From Octopus vulgaris (Eukaryota): a stretch of 64,000 nt of DNA. Positions 11,317 to 50,760 of this stretch are shown here, one piece after another. Within the stretch, counting starts at the first letter, position 1. Every line of letters starts with the position of its first letter. The notes below the pieces were generated by a model, which worked only from the letters and a program-made list of their open reading frames with translations, ran no database searches and had not been told where the DNA came from. The DNA lies in contig OX597815.1 of the NCBI GenBank assembly GCA_951406725.2, forward strand, positions 63,798,001 through 63,862,000, read 5' to 3'. The position numbers were made by a program, and so were the translations under genes.

Positions 11317-14300
11317 ATGGCCTCCCCTAACGCCTGCACAGCCGTCACCCCAATACTTTTACTAAATATTGGGGGCCTGTTGCATCAAAATAGAAACAAA
11401 ATTTCTTTCCTGAGAGATCTTACTGCATGCAATCAAGCCCTATGCATAGCACTCGTGGAAACTCACCTCAGCCCTGATATAGAGGACGCAGAAGTACACG
11501 TACCAAACTATGCCATACTGCGAACAGACAGAAGGGAAAGGAGCCATGGTGGAGTTGCTATATACATCTGAGATGACCTCACACCCCAGGTATTACGATC
11601 TATGAAATTCGGTATGTGACACTGTTAGAATACGATCATACGTGAGGTGTTTCGGTGACATATTTCTCCTCTTGTACAACAGCGTCCGGCCGCATCCCAA
11701 CATAACATAACACAATGTTATATATGCCATAATACATGTTTGTATGCAGTGCCAGAGTAGATGAATAAAGGACGCCAAAAACCGTTCTACTTTAATAAAG
11801 AGAAGATAGATTTATTTCACAGTGTACAAAGTGATTTGTTATTATTAGCGTAGTGTTGTGTCATGAATGCATGCTTATAATATTTGTGTCTGTGTGTTCG
11901 TGTGTGCAACAGAAGTACAGAATAAGATATGCAAATACAACAGAGTATGAGAGAAGTCTCAACATTTTGAGTTAAAATGAAGTTATTTTACCAGTTCATG
12001 TAGTACACGATAATGAGTTCTATACAAGATTTGAGTCTCGGAGCTGAGATTAGTTGAGTCACTTGTTGTGCATATTTTTCTCTTGATATAGATATTCTTT
12101 CAGATATATATACTGCAACTGTTTTTCCGTGGTGAGATTTTCCCACTAACAGCATGAGTTGAATCTGTATTTATCTTGTGTACAAGTTGAAATCTTCGTA
12201 GAGGGAGACGATGTTGGTGATGACGTTCTGTCTGTCGCTGGCTTACAATAGCGTCTTCATATTATAGTTGGCTTGGCTGTCGTGTGCCTTTCGAACTGGA
12301 ACATGGTTGAGTAAGCTCTCTGTGGTCTCCGACCAAGACCTTAAAAGGTCTTAAGCCGAAAGACCTTGAATCGTGATATATCAGCCTATTTAAATAGTTA
12401 AGATGGCTCAAATGAAAAGTCCTATCCGAAAGCCGTGATTGGTCAGTTTACACACTGGCGCGAAATAAGTAGATAGAGACCGCGCTTAGATGCTAACCAA
12501 TCATATCAGCGGACACAACAAGGTTAAACTAGCCAAAGATGTTTGTAATCTCAAACGAGATCATTCTTAATATTTTTCTCAAACAGTGAAGATAGCAATG
12601 AAGAAAGCAATATTGCTACAACACTTTAATTTTATACTTAAGACAACATAATATAGTCATATGCAATACATATTGCCCACCTGATGCTCCAAATCACATA
12701 GGCAAGTTTGAAGATTGCCTCACAAGAATGAAAGAAATCCTCATGAATCTGGAACACCACGTGACCATATTTCTTATGGGTGATTTCAACTTCCCCAACG
12801 TCAAATGGCCCGAAGGTCTCATACTCTCAGGAATGAATCATTGCAAGCAAGTACAGGTGGAGTCCCTGCTCAACCTCACCAATGCCTTATTCATGGAGCA
12901 AGTTGTACTCAAACCAACTAGGGCGAATAACATTCTGGATCTCTGCTTCACGAACAATATGGACATCATTCATTATGTGAAAGTGACACCGACATTAGTC
13001 TCGGATCACAAAATAATAGAGCTGTCTATGTTTGGGCCGAAAGTAACCAGAGACATACAGCATAAAGGAAGCACCCGAAATCTCTCCAATCTGAACTTCC
13101 ACAAAGCAGATTGGAAATCGATCCAAAAAGAGATCCTCAGAGAGGACTGTCTGGAATGTCTCTCCACACCAGACATTGACATGAAACTAGAATGTTTCAT
13201 GTCTTCTGTACAAGCCGTATGCCAGAAATATGTCCCAGAGCACAAGGTCAAAACAAATAGGAGCAAGATTCCAAGAGACAGGAAGATCCTCATGAGATGA
13301 CGGTGGAAGGTTGCAAATCGACTTAACCAACATCCCAAAAGTAGCGAAACGTTCCGCCTAAAAACAACACTGATGGAGATCGAAAAAAGGCTGCAACAAT
13401 CCTATGTGAGGGAGAGAGCAGACAAAGAAGCCTGGGTTATAAAAAACATTATATCAAACAAGTGAACGAACCAGTGGACTTGTTTGCCGCCTCACCTATA
13501 ACCAGCGAGGCAGTTACAATAGAATATATTGACATTAGTGAAGAAGATGTCCTACTAGCCATAGATGAAGTGGACACAAACTCAACTGCTGGTCCTGATG
13601 GTTTCCCAGCAATCTTCCTCAAAGCCTGTAAGCATGACCTGGCAAAACCCCTCAAGATTCTCTTCCAGAGCTTTCTTACAAACGGCAAACTGCCAAGCAA
13701 GTTGAAGGAGGGAATAATATGCCCAATACATAAAGCGGGGAGTAGAGCAGATGCCAAAATCTATAGGCTTATCTCTTTGACTTCACACATCAGCAAAGTC
13801 ATGGAACGGATAGTCAGAAAGAAACTAATGGCATTCCTTGAGGAAAATAACTTGCTGAGTGATACCCAGCATGGTTTTCGACCAGGTAGGACCCAGCTCT
13901 TACAGCATTATGACGGGGTGTTGAGGCAGTTACTCAACAAATCAAATGTGGACGTAATCTACCTTGATTTTGCAAAAGCTTTTGACAAGGTGGATCATGG
14001 TATGATATGCCACAAACTGCGTGACCTCGGCATAGCTGGAAAATTTGGAGTGTGGTTACATGACTTCCTGAAAGATAGGAGTCAGGCAGTAGTGGTTAAT
14101 AGAGCCACCTCTATGAACACACAAATAGTGAGTGGTGTTCCACAGGGCACTGTCTTGGGACCACTGCTTTTTATAGTGACCCTCTCAGATATGCCCTCAA
14201 ATGCCCGGATAGCCACTCTGGCAAGCTATGCAGACGATACGAAAGTCTCGCAGAAAATACAGAACCCCAGCGATGTTGCACACCTGCAGCAGGAGTTGGA

Positions 14301-14652
14301 CTCAATCTACAAATGGGCTGAAGATAATAATATGCAGTTTAATGCTGAAAAATTCCAGGCCCTGCGCTACCAGCATCCAAAACTGAATATTAAACTTACA
14401 GGGTACACCGGTCCAAGGGAATTTCAATCCCAGAGCGTAAGTCTGTGAGGGACCTGGGTATCGACATGAGTGATGATACCTCTTTCCAAGTGCACATTAC
14501 CAGGATGGTGACAAAGTGCAGCCGACTGGCTGGATGTATCCTAAGAACATTCAGAACCAGAGATAAGGAAACCATGATGGTCCTCTGGCGGACATTCGTC
14601 CTCAGCCGCCTGGATTACTGCTCACAGCTATGGTCACCCACCAGTGTGAAAT

Positions 14653-17419: not shown

Positions 17420-18262
17420 TTGTCCGTGTTTGATTTGTCTTTGCATAGGGGCAATCCGGACTCCCGTTTGCGCCGTAAACAGGGATTAATCTTCTCTCTT
17501 TGCTCCTTTGTGCCACATGGGCTCAACTCTCCTCCCCTCGCATTTCTCCCCTTCACACCTACTTCCTCCCACCCACTTCTCCTCTCTTCCCCCGACTTCT
17601 ACTTCTTCTCTTCACTCCTAACCCCTTCATCGTCACCCCTCCCTCGTAAGCCCACCCCATCCATTACACCACTCCCACATACCCCACATCTACCCCCACC
17701 CTCAGCCTACCCACATACCCCGCCTCTACCCCCACTCTCAGCTTAACCTACTCCCGACCCATTCTTTCCCCACTCTCGCCTCCCCCACCCCCAACACCAT
17801 CACACCACACTACACACCACTACACCTTACACCACCATACCACACAACACATCACATCAGAACACACCACCACGTACACATAAGCACTGACAGCTTCCCA
17901 CACACACATTTTCACACTTACACGCACACGTCAAGATCAACCGCCTTCTTCCACACGCACATACAAACTCTCTTATATACACGCACGTACACCTTCATTT
18001 TAGGATCACCACTATTTTATTATCTCCCCTTCTCCCTAGCTCTCCTGTATGACCCTTCTGTCCGGCATTCGTCATGATAGATCGCTAGCCACTACACATT
18101 CTTTATTTTCTCTCCTTGTTTCTTTCTGAGTTCCTGTCTGTGGAAGAGCGTAGGTTCGAAACGTTAAAGACTTTTTCACTTCCCGAGCGTTATACTAAAA
18201 CATCAGTTTGTTGTCTACACCACCTGTGTTCGTCCTTTGTTGTTTTTTGTGAATTCTCCCTA
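17420..18262 (+). mobile_element. 5'-truncated Neptune-type PLE 3' end
   Basis: LSLHRGNPDSRLRRKQGLIFSLCSFVPHGLN resembles the GIY-YIG C-terminal R..RE..I..L....P.GLN motif. It is followed by a C/A-rich UTR and a hammerhead-like motif at 18134-18169. Confidence 0.65.
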
Positions 18263-18486
18263 TATATATATATATGTATATATATATAAATATGTGAATG
18301 AATTATCCTATGTTTATCGTCAGCATGGAAAATTCGTTTAACCTGGGTAGCAATTTCACTTCAGAAACACGGTTGAAGCGACCTGTCCAAAGGTAGAAAC
18401 TCCGGGTTCATGTGCAGAAATTTGTGTGTTGTATATGAATAAATGAAAGAATGGAGTCGAACGAAGATGTTAACAAAATTTTTTTA

Positions 18487-18568
18487 CTCTCGACATATGT
18501 TTCGAAGACAACATGTTTTCATTCCAAAGGAATAAAGGGTGCATTATGCAATCTTCTCATCAGGAAAG
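18487..18568 (-). ncRNA. Type I hammerhead ribozyme (sense copy in the PLE 3' UTR)
   Basis: Reverse complement of the motif at 20071-20152, with an intact core. Confidence 0.8.
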
Positions 18569-18844
18569 AAAGGGAGCCTCTCTCGACAACAAGACAAACA
18601 AAAATTTCGATGACTGCCTACATGGTAAACAAAGAGATAATGAGTGTTTTTTTTAAACCGTTAGAAGAATTGACGTCAAAGATAGATAGTAGGAAGAGAA
18701 GGGTTAAAGGAATAATAGCTAGGGAACAAGTGTAGAGGGAAGGGTACGTTGATTGAAAGAATGTTCGAAGGCTTAGGAAAGAATTTCGCTATAGAAGTGG
18801 GGTGGACGTAAAGCTAATTGTTCAAACCACAGTGACAATCGTTA

Positions 18845-19234
18845 TCATTCATATGAGTAGAAAGTATGTTTCTGCCAGTGTTTACATTTGTATGATTTTT
18901 CTATGAGTGCGTTTACTAGGGGAACCTTAGAGAAGAGAATATGGAAGAGCTCAGAGTTGCAAATGTTACAAAATCTCCTGCCCTTATCAAAAGGATAAGA
19001 TACAGACAGTATGAACCAATCTAATTTGAAATTTATATTGTTGTCTTTAAGACGCCAAACTAATTTAGTTAGCCCTGTACTATGTCGTTTTTTACTATCC
19101 CTGAATGTTGAATAATGGTTTGAAATTCTCTTGGATAACTGGGAAGTGGACGCTCCTATATAGAAGAAGACATCGGTACCGGAAGAAATTCTACACTGGT
19201 AAATAGAATTCTTAATCTTAGAATTACTAGACAA
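18845..19234 (-). CDS. PLE GIY-YIG endonuclease, C-terminal fragment
   Basis: SIYQC...FYIGA...KRISNH...STGLTKLVWRLK...CNIC..E...N...E...CKH. Confidence 0.85.
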   Translation of the reverse strand: MSSNSKIKNSIYQCRISSGTDVFFYIGASTSQLSKRISNHYSTFRDSKKRHSTGLTKLVWRLKDNNINFKLDWFILSVSYPFDKGRRFCNICNSELFHILFSKVPLVNALIEKSYKCKHWQKHTFYSYE

Positions 19235-20065
19235 AAATTTAATTCTGTTGGGGTTGTCCTCCGAGATCGAAACGAAGTTTTTATTGTTATGATTGTTGTT
19301 ACTATTATTATTAGCGCTAACAGTTACACTATTTCTATTATTATTAGTATTATTAATGGTACTACAACCAGTAATACCACCGACAATAATACCGTTATTG
19401 TTGTTACCATCAACACTACCTTTGTTATTAACACGACTAATACTATTATTAATATTATCATTGTTAACACTTTCGCTGCTACCAATGCTGTTACTATTAA
19501 AACTATTCCTATTATTATGATTGTATGATGGGTTGGAATTAGCAAGATTAGTGTTGGAACTCCCGGCTGAAGAATCTTTGTTTAGTAGCTTGGTATTGTG
19601 GGAAGATATAATTTGTGAAAGATTCCTAGTGTTAGAGAAAGCGATTCTGACTTTGTGGGAATTGATAATAGAATGATATCTGAGTTCTTCCGTATTCTCT
19701 TCTTTAAGGTTCCCCTAGTAAACACACTCATAGAAAAATCACACAAATGTAAACACTGGCAGAAACATACTTTCTACTCATATAAATGATAACGATAGTC
19801 ACAGTGGTTTGAACAATTAGCTTTACGTCCACCCCACTTCTATAGCGAAATTCTTTCCTAAGCCTTCGAACATTCTTTCAATCAACGTACCATTCCCTCT
19901 CCACTTGTTCCCTAGCTATTATTCCTTTAACCCTTCTCTTTCTACTATCTATCTTTGACGTCAATTCTTCTAACGGTTTTTTTTTAAAAAAGCACTCATT
20001 ATCTCTTTGTTTACCATGTAGGCAGTCATCGAAATTTTTGTTTGTCTTGTTGTCGAGAGAGGCTC

Positions 20066-20158
20066 CCTTTCTTTCCTGATGAGAAGATTGCATAATGCAC
20101 CCTTTATTCCTTTGGAATGAAAACATGTTGTCTTCGAAACATATGTCGAGAGTAAAGG
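20066..20158 (+). ncRNA. Canonical type I hammerhead ribozyme
   Basis: Stem I CTTTC(20071-75)/GAGAG(20148-52), extended by CCTTT/AAAGG. CTGATGA at 20076-82. Stem II GAAGA/TCTTC. GAAA at 20136-39. Palindromic stem III ACATATGT. GTC triplet at 20145-47. Confidence 0.85.
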
Positions 20159-20228
20159 AATTTTGTTAACATCGTCGTTCGACTCCATTCTTTCATTTAT
20201 ATATATATATATATATATATAGGGATAT

Positions 20229-20313
<85 letters not shown>

Positions 20314-28070: not shown

Positions 28071-29002
28071 ATGCTGAACTGGAAGACACCAGCCTCTCCA
28101 GAGCACCCTGTCCGGATTGAGTAGCTGTTCGCAGACATTTGACCTCTCTCCGTTAAATTATTCTTCAACAACTGGCTTAATTATGGTTTTACGGTCATTC
28201 TGTTTTATATTTCCGTTTTAATTCACCTTTCCACTTTTTGCACCTATTGCCTCCTCGCTTTTTTCCTGTGATTTCTCTTGTAACAGCGACCTGCTTCGTA
28301 AATTGAATATACCTTGTCCTCAGAGTCAGTAGATTGCTTGGAGATACAATGCGTGTTATAAAAACTGCCCCAGAGTCGCAGGGATAGCAAGAATAACAGG
28401 TGTAAAAAGCAAATTATTGTTGAGCGTGTTGTGGGAAATGGTCGAATCAGTCAGGATAGGATTCCTTTAGAGGACGATGTATGGGTTTGTTTCAAAGGCC
28501 AATCAATATTACATGGTGAGGTTGGAGTGGTATTGTCGAATGTCATTTGTACCGAAGTTAAGCATAGATGGAGCATGTACTGACAGGATGTAAGTCATCC
28601 GTTTTGGAGTGTTCCAGGTAGCATCGCTAAATTTCGGGCATCTTCGTTGATGCACTAAATTGCTGCAACGCAACAAGAACCTCACAAAAATCACTCAGCC
28701 ATGAAAGATCTTTAATGACAAAACATCTTCAATTAATGATTCATGAGATGCGTGAATTATTGATCCAAACAATAACCTATTCATTCTTAATACGTTTTAG
28801 CAGATTCGAAGTGAATAATAAAGGATCGAACTTCGTTGGTTTTCTTCATCGGACAACACCTCTTTTTGACAGCATGTATTCATAACACATCTGATTCGCC
28901 GGTTTAAATGGACGGTGAAACACCGGATGCCTCCTCAGTCAAGACTACCCAGTAACAATAGATACATCAGCGTGCTTTGGTAAATAATTTGTTACTGATT
29001 TC

Positions 29003-30287
29003 TACACCCAAAATCCTCAAATGTAAAAGGCAACACAAATCTTTAAAAAAACTCTTGACAAATGCCAAACTTCACACACCACATCCACCCCCAGCAGTTA
29101 AAAAATGTGCACGCCCAAACTGTAGCACCTGCCCCTTCCTACTTGAAGGCTCTGAATTTATCTTCAAACAAGGAACGAAGTTTAAAATCAAGACCAACTT
29201 CTGTTCCTCCGAGAACCTTATCTACGTTCTCACATGCGCTGGTTGCCAACATAATTATGTTGGACAAACGAGCCTCCCGTTACGTAAAAGAGTAGTGGTG
29301 CATAAAGAACAAATAAATCTCCCGGAATACCGGCAAATCCCACTGAGTGACCACATAGACTCATGCGCTAAAGACAAAAATCCCAAATTCTACATATTCC
29401 CCTTCTACCAATGTAAAGACGGAATCACCACACAGGAGAGAATTAACAAGGAGAATCTCTTTATTGAAAAATTCTAAACGCATCTTAATATGCAAACTCG
29501 TCGTTGATCATACTTCTTTTTTCTACCTCATTCTTCATGGATGGACTAACACAAATATATAAGGATACCATGCAGTCATCACTTCAAGCTAAAACTTATA
29601 TTCTTTAAATATCATTATTATTATTGTTGTTATTATTATTATTATTATTTTTATTATATATGACATAACAATCCGAAATGTAATTATAAATTGGTTTATG
29701 CAAATTTATATAATTAGAAAACAATATAAATAAAGTGTTAAAATCTGAATGTTAAGTTAGCAAACAATTATATAAAAAGGAAAATGCAAATGAAGCTAAA
29801 ATGATAATTTTATAATTTAAGGTTTATTAACACCCTTTATTACAAAAAAATTGATAAACACAAACTGAAGAGCTTAAAACCCATAGAGTTGTCTCCCCTT
29901 ATTCACAACACAGGAACTGGACTACTACTACTTCCTGTTTTGCCATTCACTTAAGAGACACCCTTATTTAAATTAAACAACACATGGATTTAATCCCATT
30001 GGATCTCAATACTTCAAGGTAATTTTTTCGTGAACAATCATTAAACTCAAGATACACAAAGACTTTACAATGTATCGGAGTACCTATTTTTAAATTTTTG
30101 TATATATTTATTATTATTTTTTTTGCAAAAAACAATGTAATTTTCTTTTTTCCCCCTCCTCACATTAAAAATTTTTTTCGCTTTACAATTCTTGAAAAGT
30201 CACATTATGACGAAAACCGGTTTGAATTAATATATATATATTTTATCAATTTTTCAAAAACTATTCCATACATCCATTTTCATTATA

Positions 30288-31946: not shown

Positions 31947-34346
31947 GGGCAGGTGTGGCTGTGTGGTAACAAACTACGTTCGAAGATACTGTACTTGATA
32001 TGGGCGGTAGTGCCTTGCCGGTCTATGGCCTACCTTCAACAAACTGGGAAGGCACAAACACTCTGTCTTCACATTTGCTGCGTGAGACATGTTTTAATGT
32101 TGACGAGCTTGCCGAGTACATAGCCGACAATGAGCCAAAGCTCCTTCCAGAACAGAAGTTCGCTTACTACTCCGTTGTTAATTCAGTCCGGGCCAAAGCT
32201 GGGGGGATTTTTTTCCTGGACGCTCCCGAGGGCACTGGGAAAACTTTTGTCAACAAATTTAATATTGGCTGAGATTAGGCGAACATAAGGCATTGCCCTA
32301 GCTGTGGCATCATCTGGAATTGCGGCTACTTTGTTGCCAGGCGGCAGGACAGCTCACTCCACTTTCAAGCTTCCGCTTGATTTAGCGAAGACTGAGGCAC
32401 CAACTTGCAACATCAGTAACAGCTCCGATCAGGCAGAAGTCTTCAGACGATGCAAGCTTATCGTTTGGGATAAATGCACGATGGCCCACAGAGGTGCTCT
32501 TGAGGCACTAGATAGATCTCTCAGAGACATCAAACACTCTTCAGCTCCCATGGGAGGCATAACACTTCTTCTTTCAGGGGACTTCCGACAAACACTTCCC
32601 GTTATTCCCAAAGGGACTACAACTGATGCAGTAAGTGCGTGTTTTAAGTAATCCACATTGTGGCCACTGGTGAAGACACTCAAACTTCACACCAAAATGC
32701 GTGCTCATATGCGACGTGATATCACATCAGCAGCATTTTCTCACACCCTTCTTGCACTTGGCGAAGGCAAAATACCAGGGGATGAAAATGGTAATATTGC
32801 CATCGATTCCATTTGTACCATTGTTAAAACGCCTTCTGATCTCAGAGATGCAGTGTTCCCAGATCTACAAGCTAATTATCAGAATATGGATTGGATTGGC
32901 CAAAGGGCTATTCTGGCCCCGAGGAATAAAACTGTTCACCATATTAATGATGAAATGCTAAAACTCATTCCTGAGGATGTCTATGTATATAAGTCTATCG
33001 ATACAACTCCTGACCCAGAGGACGTCATCAGCTATCCAATAGAGGTACTCTATTCCTTTGAGCACCCCGGACTACTACCACACATTCTCAAACTTAAAGT
33101 TGGTGCCCCTATAATGCTCATTAGAAATTTGATTCCCCCAAAACAATGCAATGGCACACGTTTGATCGTTAAGTCCTTATCTCCCAATCTGACTGAGGCC
33201 ACCATTATCACAGGGTGCGGTCGAGGCAACGTTGTGCTCATACCTAGGATGCATCTTTTCCCATCAGGAGCAGACCTACCTTTCATATTTCGGAGGTCCC
33301 GGTTCCCAGTAAGGCCATGTTTCGCAATGTCAATTAACAAAGCGCAGGGTCAAACACTGTCTGTGGCGGGAATTCATTCGGGAGAGCCATGTTTCTCTCA
33401 TAGTCAGCTTTATGTTGCCTGCTCGCGTGTCGGCAGCAACAGTGATGCTTTCGCATTCGTTCCACAACGAAAAACAAAAAACATTGTGTACAAGGAGGTT
33501 TTATAGGATTACTACGTTTCATCATTTTCGAACACGTTAGTATTTCACTTACATACGACTCTCTTTTATGATGGCATTTACATTTTTAGGCGTTTCATGA
33601 CATTAATTCACACTTAACCAACACCTGTCCTTCGCTCACCTCTATTTCTATCCATTCATCATCAAACCACCAGCCTCATCTTCTATATCCAACTTACATG
33701 ACACATCTACCCCCTACATCTACACTCTCACTGTTAAAGTTTACATAAGCGACAACACGATCGCAACATACACTTTGGAAACTAAGCAACAGATCATTTT
33801 ATACAACAACAGATTTAATCATAACGCCCATCAATGAAAACATCTCCACCACTGTGTTGTGATTCATCTATTCAGCACCACTACAGTCTTGCCGGTATGA
33901 CATATGGTGAGTAGATGCTATTGTTCTATATTTTATAAATTACACATATTTACTTACCCATGCTTCATTCCCCTCTTGCCTACATAGGGCATCCATTCTC
34001 TTTTAACACAGCATGAGGTTTTGTAACAGTACACCCGCTGCCGTTCGTGGAAAACGAAGAGACCCTATTCACCTGCGAACGTTTTACACCGCCTTCCACG
34101 ACTATCAAATTCTTACAATTATGAGAACAATAACATCGCTCTTTTCAAGGCAACCTCGCATTCAATTCTTACACCATTCTACGAGGGGGTGGGAACCCCT
34201 TTACACGGCTTTCTATAAACTTACAAATACATTCATTCGCCGTAAACCTATATCAATATTTGCCTGTATAATCATCATAATTCAGTGCAATCATTAACAG
34301 TACTTTCAAGAAATTCAGCCCCGAGCATCGCCGGGCAATCCTGCTA

Positions 34347-36925: not shown

Positions 36926-38700
36926 AATTTTGATTTTGATTTTGATTTTTCCAGTTTCAGCTCATGAGCTGTGGCCATGCTGGGGCACCGCCATTTGGTT
37001 TGCTATATGATTTTTACCTCACGAATGCTTTTTAGCAACTGCCATTTGGTGCATGAGAGAGTTCGATGCAGTTGCCCTCATCTGCACCTCTTGACGTGAA
37101 GTTGGTTCATCCGGGACACCTGAGAGGAAGAGATCCAGTCCTACTTTAAAGACATCAGCATTTACACCATGCAGGTCCTTCAGGTTCTTCGGGGGGATAT
37201 TGAAGAGCTGTGGGCCTCTGAAGCCCAGGCTATCACAGTATCTTGTCCTACATCTTGATGGCAAATTTGGAGTCCTTGGTACCACGCAGTGGCGCCCGGT
37301 TCTGGCATTTGTGTGACTCTCGATGCCAAAGTTTGGGACAAGTCCTTCCAGGATCTTCCAGATATATATTATGGCATATCTTTCTCGCCTACGCTCCAAG
37401 GAATAGAGTTTTAATCTCTTGAGTCTTTCCCAGTAGCTTATATGCTGCACAGAGGCTATCTTCTTCGTGTAGCTTCGTTGGATCGCCTCAAGTTCTGTGA
37501 TCAACTTGACACTGGATGGTGACCATAGCTGAGAGCAATAGTCAAAGTGGCTTAGGACAAGTGTCTTCCAGAGGACCATCATGGTTTCTTGTTCTCTTGT
37601 TCTAAAGGTTCTAAGAATCCATCTGGCCAACCGTCTACATTTCATTGCCAGTTTAGCAACATGTACATGAAGGGTTGCGTCATCACTCATGTGAATACCC
37701 AGGTCACGCACTGATTGTGCCTCTGGGATTGCAATCCCTCCGGGTCCAGTGTATTCATTAGGTATTGCATTCAGTTTTGCATGCTGATAGCATAAAGCTT
37801 GAAACTTTTCAGCATTGAACTGCATGCTATTCTTTTCAGCCCACTTGTATATTTTGTCCAGCTCACATTGCAGGTGTTTAGTGTCTTCAGGGTTTTGTAT
37901 TGCATGTGAAACTTTTGTATCATCTGCATAACTTGTGATCGTGGCTCTCTGCGTGGCTGAGGGGATGTCTGAGAGGGCCATTATGAACAGTAGTGGTCCC
38001 AAAACAGTGCCCTGCGGAACACCGCTCACTATTTGCGTGTTAATTGGCTACTACCACCTGACTTCTATCCTTCAGAAAGTCATGAAGCCATTCTCCCAAT
38101 TTTCCAACTATGCCAAGATCACGCAGTTTGTGACATATCATTCCATGATCGACTTTATCAAAGGCCTTTGCAAAGTCGAGATATATCACATCCACATTTG
38201 AGTGGTTGAGCAGTCAGTTTCAGCACCCAGTCATAGTGTTGTAGGAGCTGAGTTAAGCAGCTTCTTCCTGGTCGGAAACCATGTTGAGTGTCAGGCAGCA
38301 AGTCATTTTCTTCAAGGAAGGTGATTAGTTTCCTTCTGACTATTCGTTCCATGACCTTGCTGATGTGTGAGGTCAGAGAGATAGGTCTGTAGTTCTTGGC
38401 TTCCGCTCTGCTACCTCCTTTATGAATAGGGCATATTTTACCTTCCTTCAGTTTTCTTGGAAGTTTGCCAGTTGCAAGGAAGCTCTGAAAGAGAGACTGC
38501 AGTGGTCTTGCTAGGACTCTCTTACATACTTTTAGAAGGATTGCCGGGAATCCATCGGGGCCAGTAGCTGAGTTTGTTTTCATCTCATCTATAGCCTTTA
38601 TTACATCGTCTTCCTTTATATTGATGTAATCAATCATCGCCGCCTCTGACCCCATATCTGCAGTGGTGAAGAAGTCAGTTGGATTGCTGATTTGGAAATG
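36926..38700 (-). mobile_element. 5'-truncated CR1-group LINE (second subfamily) with an intact 3' end
   Basis: RT ORFs at 38158-38655 and 37019-38029 (NYRPISLTS, QHGFRPGRSCLTQLL, GVPQG, YADD, LYSLERRRER, PDEP). A short 3' UTR with the CAGCTCATGAGCTG palindrome and an (AAAATC)n tail. Confidence 0.93.
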
Positions 38701-38739
38701 CCCAAATATATTATATATATATTACATATATATTATATA

Positions 38740-49999: not shown

Positions 50000-50760
50000 G
50001 CCGTTTCTGCGATAACCCAAGCGGTAGGTTAGCCTGTCACCACTTTGGGCATTCCGTCATCAGAGACAAGGTATGAATAAGGCATTTCACATAGGGTCAG
50101 TTTATGGGTTTCATCATCTCTTTTCACAATTGGAGTGGACAGTACGTTTTGGGGGGTAGTTGTTGCTTAATAGATTGTTACTTAACTTGATCATTTCTTT
50201 GTGGTGTGTATCAGGATCGTTACTTATATTATTTGCTCGATGTTTTATGCACTGAGCAATCCCTCTCTTTACACTGTATGGACGGTGGTAATTGAAGTTG
50301 AAGTATCGTCCAGTGAAGGTTGACTTGCGGTCTACGGATGTCCTGGATCCATAGTTTGCGCGTGTTATTAATATGTCCAGGAATCCTAGCTGATTATCTT
50401 TATCCTTTTCCATAGTAAACTGTATGGGTGGCTTTATTGAGTTCACATGATCTAACTGTATTTGGAAATCTTCCTGGTGGGGCCAGAGTATAAAGGTGTC
50501 ATCAACATATCGCAGCCATAGGGTTGGTTTTAGTGGTGTAAATCCTAAAGCCAAATTCTCAAAGTATTCCATGTATATATTGGCTATTATCGGTGATAAT
50601 GGCGAACCCATAGCTAAACCCTTCCCTATCGATATATATCAGTGTCCATACTGAAGTAGCTAGTTTCTACACAGAAGGTCAACGTTTCCATCAACTTTCT
50701 TATTGGTACACTAGTACGTTCTTTTAAATAGGTGTCTGTCACTAGTTATTCTTGAATCAC
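50000..50760 (-). mobile_element. Poseidon/Penelope-type PLE RT fragment
   Basis: GLAMGSPLSPIIANIYME...WLRYVDDTF...IQFTME...FLDILI...RKSTFTGRY. A CTGATGA...GAAAC hammerhead remnant lies downstream on the same strand at about 50065-50000. Confidence 0.85.

Follow-up and report, generated by a model that had tools for sequence, protein, structure and literature searches.

A complete type I hammerhead core lies on the forward strand at 20076-20147 of the window, the whole 64,000-nt stretch of Octopus vulgaris DNA that was analyzed (Table 1). The core residues CUGAUGA, GAAA, and GUC and the cut site, which is a predicted position, are located as claimed in an earlier, preliminary description of the locus. 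The stem I given there (5 bp, a bulged U, and 5 bp) matches the sequence, one pair being G-U, and the palindromic stem III is present as well. The identity as a hammerhead is upheld by a type I descriptor, which finds only two sites in the 64 kb, both of them these copies, and none in 60 block-wise dinucleotide shuffles. The second site is the mirror copy noted before. It is confirmed on the minus strand, but its distal stem I is weaker, with AA replacing GG, and it belongs to an inverted repeat of about 527 nt (18432-18955/19679-20207, 96–97% complementary). The Rfam hammerhead models, proposed earlier as a check, gave no match in the whole window at the gathering score, and none in a local E-value scan up to E 10; the long stem II is the likely cause.

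Table 1. Features of the hammerhead and of the insertion that carries it (positions in the window).
Feature	Position	Strand	Description and basis
Hammerhead motif, type I	20066..20158	+	Core sequence, descriptor search, core conservation
Stem I	20066-20075 with 20148-20158	+	5 bp including one G-U, bulged U20153, then 5 bp
Core CUGAUGA	20076-20082	+	
Stem II domain, 53 nt	20083..20135	+	Extended helix, internal loop, distal hairpin; folds, RNAalifold, pair counts
Extended stem II helix	20083-20093 with 20125-20135	+	RNAalifold and pair counts
Distal 8-bp hairpin in stem II domain	20103..20121	+	Paired with probability 0.67-1.0 in each of the four folded contexts
Core GAAA	20136-20139	+	
Stem III palindrome ACAUAUGU	20139-20146	+	Likely dimer-pairing site
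GUC	20145-20147	+	Predicted cut after 20147
Upstream purine run	20051..20073	+	Can pair with 5' strand of stem I (competing hairpin); only in this subfamily
Second hammerhead copy	18482..18573	-	C3 at 18563; predicted cut after 18492
Right arm	19679..20197	+	Inverted, 5'-truncated copy of element 3' region; short end ~50 nt past cut
Left copy	18288..19681	-	5'-truncated Penelope-like element: ORF end, 3' UTR, hammerhead, long tail
Endonuclease-end open frame	18845..19681	-	Asn-rich linker and GIY-YIG-type endonuclease, CxxC and CxH; RT missing
Tail, ~150 nt	18288..18441	-	This end only; equals 5' UTR of next unit in tandem copies
(TA)n left boundary	18261..18293	.	Likely target
(TA)n then (GATA)n right boundary	20198..20313	.	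Likely target

The hammerhead belongs to an inverted insertion, truncated at its 5' end, of a Hydra-clade-like Penelope-like element (PLE), a retrotransposon, in (TA)n, and it lies close to the insertion's 3' end. The motif is thus no stand-alone RNA; this context was missed by the preliminary description. The insertion ends 203 and 50 nt past the cut and thus has one long and one short end. The open frame of the left copy shares 30% identity over 131 aa with protein P0005 (pairwise E 1e-15). Pfam gave nothing above cut-off for this frame, and a search with the endonuclease end among longer proteins returned none of 244 candidates.

The window copy is a truncated, non-autonomous product with no evident host function. 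The predicted probability of the hammerhead fold is near zero when the RNA is folded in three longer contexts, although stems I and II are retained in the best fold of 20040-20170. In plus-strand read-through RNA, all 93 nt of the motif are predicted to pair with the left inverted arm, and the modeled folds indicate that the window hammerhead is likely silent in such RNA. The locus is unlikely to be an active cleavage site because the reverse transcriptase (RT) and the 5' end are absent, the fold probability is near zero, and the read-through RNA pairs with the other arm. Its rank as the best candidate for an active RNA is therefore doubtful: the copy is truncated, read-through RNA pairs over the 93 nt, and stem III has a probability of about 0.01 in the monomer. 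The mirror copy lies on the opposite strand and is ruled out as a dimer partner in cis. The upstream purine run opens with a 9-nt stretch that directly repeats the cut-site sequence, and in another register this stretch permits a fold resembling type III that uses a second GUC, at 20052-20054. As a working fold it was rejected, being less stable (-16.5 vs. -19.3) and confined to this subfamily.

Other mobile elements were noticed by eye in the window. GIY-YIG-endonuclease-like and RT-like pieces of other Penelope-type elements occur at 28962-29477 (+) and 50114-50638 (-), and LINE-type endonuclease and reverse transcriptase frames at 12602-14448 (+) and 37019-38721 (-). The frame at 32652-33506 (+) resembles the PIF1-type helicase of a Helitron.

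The family is abundant in the genome. In a DNA search of the octopus genome, 40 of 1,582 first-look candidates were scored, and the 30 loci examined are 5'-truncated, often inverted copies, mostly 93–99% identical to the window copy. A 27-nt subfamily pattern has 461 exact genomic matches, and a lineage pattern has 3,404 (reversed control, 0). In this one genome, thousands of hammerhead motifs thus escape Rfam and short-loop descriptors. Of 3,427 candidates from the protein search, 150 were scored, and these show 62–100% identity. Twenty stretches around protein matches were examined for sister subfamilies; these have frames of ~800–930 aa and a hammerhead at the equivalent place, with a stem II domain of 53–56 nt (47 nt in one copy). 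In longer copies of the family the endonuclease is preceded by a Penelope-type RT bearing DKT and GLYRDD motifs. By motifs and alignment, RT and GIY-YIG are assigned to a single frame of 785–934 aa in these copies and in sister subfamilies; Pfam gave nothing above cut-off for five longer proteins. The best named protein match is from Argonauta hians (39%). A metagenome scan found two relatives in 46 stretches, one ending in a hammerhead-like core with a short stem II, cut by the contig end, and the other showing none.

Further hammerheads were seen beside this family. A second family with a 25–29 nt stem II and palindromic stem III occurs at L038:482 (-) and at L053:6333 and 6898 (-), and a hammerhead-like motif with a short stem II, unrelated to the window family, at L047:2981 (-). 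The frame at L034:7213-7914 (-) is another Penelope-type endonuclease and has the cysteine linker motif.

Core conservation was compared in nine subfamily representatives, whose RT cores are 68–100% identical to the reference L060. Twelve of the 14 core positions are invariant, vs. nine of 190 upstream columns, which points to selection on the core. Of 132 copies, 107 have a stem I with 5 or more contiguous bp. Across subfamilies the core varies only at N7 and in one lineage with a U4C change. The U4C core (CCGAAGA) is found in 39 of 39 matches at L064:2012-2102 and L098-L127. Exact matches in the whole genome number 490 for U4C, 107 for U4, and seven for the CpG-decay form; CpG decay was rejected as the origin of the U4 copies in this lineage (107 CTG vs. 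7 CCA). Mean identity is 97.5% among 18 U4C sequences vs. 88.3% among five U4 sequences, and the U4C lineage looks younger than its U4 relatives. It keeps the long stem II helix.

The conserved fold of stem II was examined in an alignment of 34 rows chosen from 51 distinct cores, decayed-looking or flank-truncated singletons being left out. RNAalifold picks an extended stem II. The 12 pairs of the extended helix are 89.5% paired and seven are compensated; the distal hairpin is 88.7% paired with one compensated pair, and the palindrome is 100% paired, with a central pair that is UA in 22 rows, UG in eight, and CG in four. Together these elements are 91.1% paired, vs. 31–42% in slid controls. 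They contain 56 double-change cells vs. 21.6 in shuffles, a count in which cells are not independent and related sequences may outscore shuffles without structure, as the tool warns. Read by eye on the RT tree, the signal amounts to ~8 double changes on ~4 branches. Two of the five covariation measures failed to beat shuffles: pairs with a double change number 9 vs. 7.1 (44/500 shuffles), and further pair types are not above shuffles (390/500). The column pairs 34:82 and 37:79 fail to form in 11 and 18 of the 34 rows, respectively. The conserved fold supported by the alignment consists of a single long helix, an internal loop, and a single distal hairpin.

This picture differs from that of an enlarged, branched loop 2 with two small hairpins. 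The large stem II region was rightly called atypical, but the branched fold is unsupported as the conserved form. The GAAGA/UCUUC pairs of stem II are present, but the helix has at least 6 bp, which reduces the insert from 43 to 41 nt. The hairpin described as ATTCC-ttt-GGAAT exists and was understated in length, being 8 bp, while the one described as TGCAT-a-ATGCA cannot close a 1-nt loop and has at best 4 bp and a 3-nt loop. In this subfamily the TGCA hairpin reaches P 0.3–0.45 in the 93-mer and 0.5–0.9 in longer contexts, and the two folds differ little in energy (-16.9 vs. -17.8 kcal/mol), the branched one lying within 1 kcal/mol of the extended one; according to the model it may form locally as an alternative here. 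Across the 34 rows, however, the TGCA hairpin is only 75% paired, with none of its four pairs compensated and the outer pairs broken in 19 and 15 rows, and where stems I and II fail to form it belongs to a non-hammerhead fold. That the branched loop is the functional form is hence highly improbable, and RNAalifold also prefers the extended helix.

In the monomer, stem III is not predicted to form and costs 0.6 kcal/mol. One of three 8-nt self-pairing forms is carried by 126 of 132 copies, and the central palindrome pair, which is impossible within one strand, is complementary in every row. Since the palindromic stem III covaries at its center, dimer pairing is favored. A modeled double hammerhead has -47.4 kcal/mol vs. 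2 x -17.8 kcal/mol, a gain of ~12 kcal/mol over two monomers. The dimer assay suggested in the preliminary description is apt. The PLE hammerheads tested in the literature are described as weak and dimer-dependent (PMC4209133; review PMC6765202), and their cleavage as dimers is attributed to Lunse et al. in the summary given by the review (PMC6765202).

The same RNA could instead be an efficient monomeric ribozyme in which the internal loop of stem II docks on the stem I bulge and replaces the loop 1-loop 2 contact. Such a ribozyme would suit the complete core, the G10.1-C11.1 (or G-U) pair in 34 of 34 rows, the 17 invariant columns among the 53 of the stem II domain, and a stem I that is bulged or interrupted in all subfamilies and forms with P 0.96–0.98 in the isolated 93-nt RNA. 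Self-cutting as monomers is reported for some type I hammerheads of invertebrates, and for those that cleave well in this form a stem III of 2 bp closed by a tetraloop is given as typical (PMC7229834); by analogy, these monomer-cleaving motifs with a short stem III count against a need for dimers. The predicted absence of stem III from the monomer argues the other way, as does a palindrome center that covaries and that a monomer would not need, and no covarying loop 1-loop 2 contact or pairing was found by eye in the alignment. Efficient monomeric cleavage is accordingly judged unlikely.

The ends of the inserts bear on how the cut is used. In a survey of 133 ends, 55 lie 45–75 nt and 56 lie 185–230 nt past the cut, so that 111 reach (TA)n at two fixed distances, near 50 and near 205 nt; 16 have no (TA)n within 330 nt and six lie elsewhere. 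The tail of ~150 nt is found on one end. Both ends could be classified in nine of 15 outward-facing pairs, and all nine have one long and one short end. Tandem pLTR structures and inverted 5'-truncated structures with a one-ended tail are present, as in EN+ PLEs. The tandem unit measures 3,624 nt (locus L061), and its cut lies 262–267 nt before the start codon. As the ends lie past the cut site, the insertion template appears to span it. The motif CTCCATT, ~35–45 nt past the cut (20183-20189 in the window), is invariant in nine of nine representatives and just precedes the short end; it is a possible RT-start signal. A pseudoknot between the internal loop and CTCCATT was dropped from consideration: the loop varies between subfamilies and CTCCATT stays constant.

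Templates that span the cut would also be expected if the structure were retained chiefly so that the RT/endonuclease can recognize it, placed as it is beside two reverse-transcription start sites, with catalysis marginal or dispensable. The U4C lineage fits this proposal, as it outnumbers its U4 relatives, looks younger, and retains the long helix. So does the anole element, for which the account consulted reports no reads ending at the cut and insertion by ribozyme mutants in vitro (PMC11167929). Given the spread of the U4C lineage and these mutants, cleavage may be dispensable. Invariance of the other core residues across subfamilies is, however, hard to explain without catalysis, and U4C reportedly retains enough activity in a viroid; recognition as the main role seems unlikely. 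A related proposal is that stem II became a structured protein-docking switch of ~55 nt, through which the element's own RT-endonuclease gates cleavage vs. reverse transcription. This is rather unlikely, and so is its further component of two RT start sites ~150 nt apart, one for each end of an inverted insertion. If the switch were real, long-armed hammerheads would escape standard descriptors, and this could explain some of the 'half-core' elements reported as ribozyme-less.

The motif is best read, with reasonable but not full confidence, as a conditional ribozyme of a Hydra-clade-like Penelope-like retrotransposon, with a predicted long and irregular stem II, that likely cuts tandem transcripts with the help of a partner copy or a protein. 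Tandem transcripts of the element are predicted to be cut at GUC, folding being helped either by a second copy that pairs through the palindrome or by the protein of the element; protein assistance is described for the hammerhead of the anole element (PMC11167929). Cleavage at successive hammerheads in tandem arrays would release unit-length RNA starting ~262–267 nt before the start codon. Since whole hammerheads are found in inserts, the RNA that is reverse transcribed must often be intact over the cut site, whether re-ligated or never cut. The long stem II may help the RNA to fold or may bind protein.

Judged from sequence, with reference proteins compared by eye, the element is a Hydra-clade-like PLE. 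Published descriptions of the Hydra clade give the order RT then GIY-YIG, insertion into (TA)n, and a hammerhead in sense orientation close to the 3' end (PMC8557442). Shared with it here are the C-terminal GIY-YIG following RT, DKT rather than DKG, CxxC and CxH around conserved E and N (alignment columns 888-922, by eye), the missing cysteine pair inside the GIY-YIG core (no CCHH), (TA)n targets, inverted 5'-truncated copies, and a sense 3' type I hammerhead with a short self-complementary stem III. Differences from the described members lie in the stem II domain (53–56 nt vs. loops of 3–10 nt for the Hydra elements of File S2, PMC8557442), in an N-terminal RW followed by L in place of RWK, in the unit length (~3.6 kb vs. 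under 3 kb), and in the tail (~150 nt vs. the published 30–40 nt). The CxCX5C linker is absent in all seven own-genome rows, where an Asn-rich stretch is found instead, and present in P0001, P0002, and P0005. The name 'Hydra-like' is used because CxCX5C is absent, RWK is only partly matched, and the RT tree contains no named references. In print, CxCX5C has been proposed to be tied to (TA)n targeting; it is lost here (window 19270-19640, minus strand; alignment columns 640-800) and the inserts still end in (TA)n.

Several features agree with those described for PLE repeats by Cervera and de la Pena (2014; PMC4209133), i.e., type I motifs, a palindromic helix III, opposite-strand pairs, proposed dimers, and a helix II longer than usual. 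The helix II given there has 6–8 bp, whereas here ~11–12 bp are followed by an internal loop and another hairpin, and this subfamily is without the extra base at the helix II 5' end. Long loop 2 regions in PLE hammerheads have a precedent in PLE-X1_sMoe and PLE-X1_sTam of spike moss (File S2 of PMC8557442), which also have a large stem II (9 bp with a 35-nt loop; a 29-nt loop). These are endonuclease-less plant elements on 28S rDNA, represented by single consensus rows flagged as non-canonical, and the relevant passages present no covariation for them.

The anole element, Poseidon PAc of Anolis (Frangieh et al., 2024; PMC11167929), is likewise described with two RT starts downstream of the hammerhead that set the tail, and with unprocessed RNA as template. 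Its hammerhead overlaps the start codon and its RT starts are in the ORF, whereas here the cut precedes the start codon by ~262 nt, and the two ends lie within the UTR, ~150 nt from each other. Non-LTR retrozymes, as presented in the accounts consulted (PMC7229834; bioRxiv 10.64898/2026.07.22.740005), also carry type I hammerheads in animal repeats. They are short non-coding tandem repeats, whereas the present motif belongs to a coding element, parts of which, truncated or inverted, make up the copies.

The literature covered contains no description of an animal PLE with a long stem II that covaries, and supplementary files beyond it may show similar stems. The family is a natural comparison set for the role of the hammerhead in PLEs, with subfamilies that have a covarying long stem II, a young lineage whose core is weakened, and sharp ends at two sites. 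It allows a test of whether selection keeps cleavage, the pairing of dimers, or the binding of protein. For the Hydra clade, hammerheads have been published before at this position; the difference here lies in the long covarying stem II.
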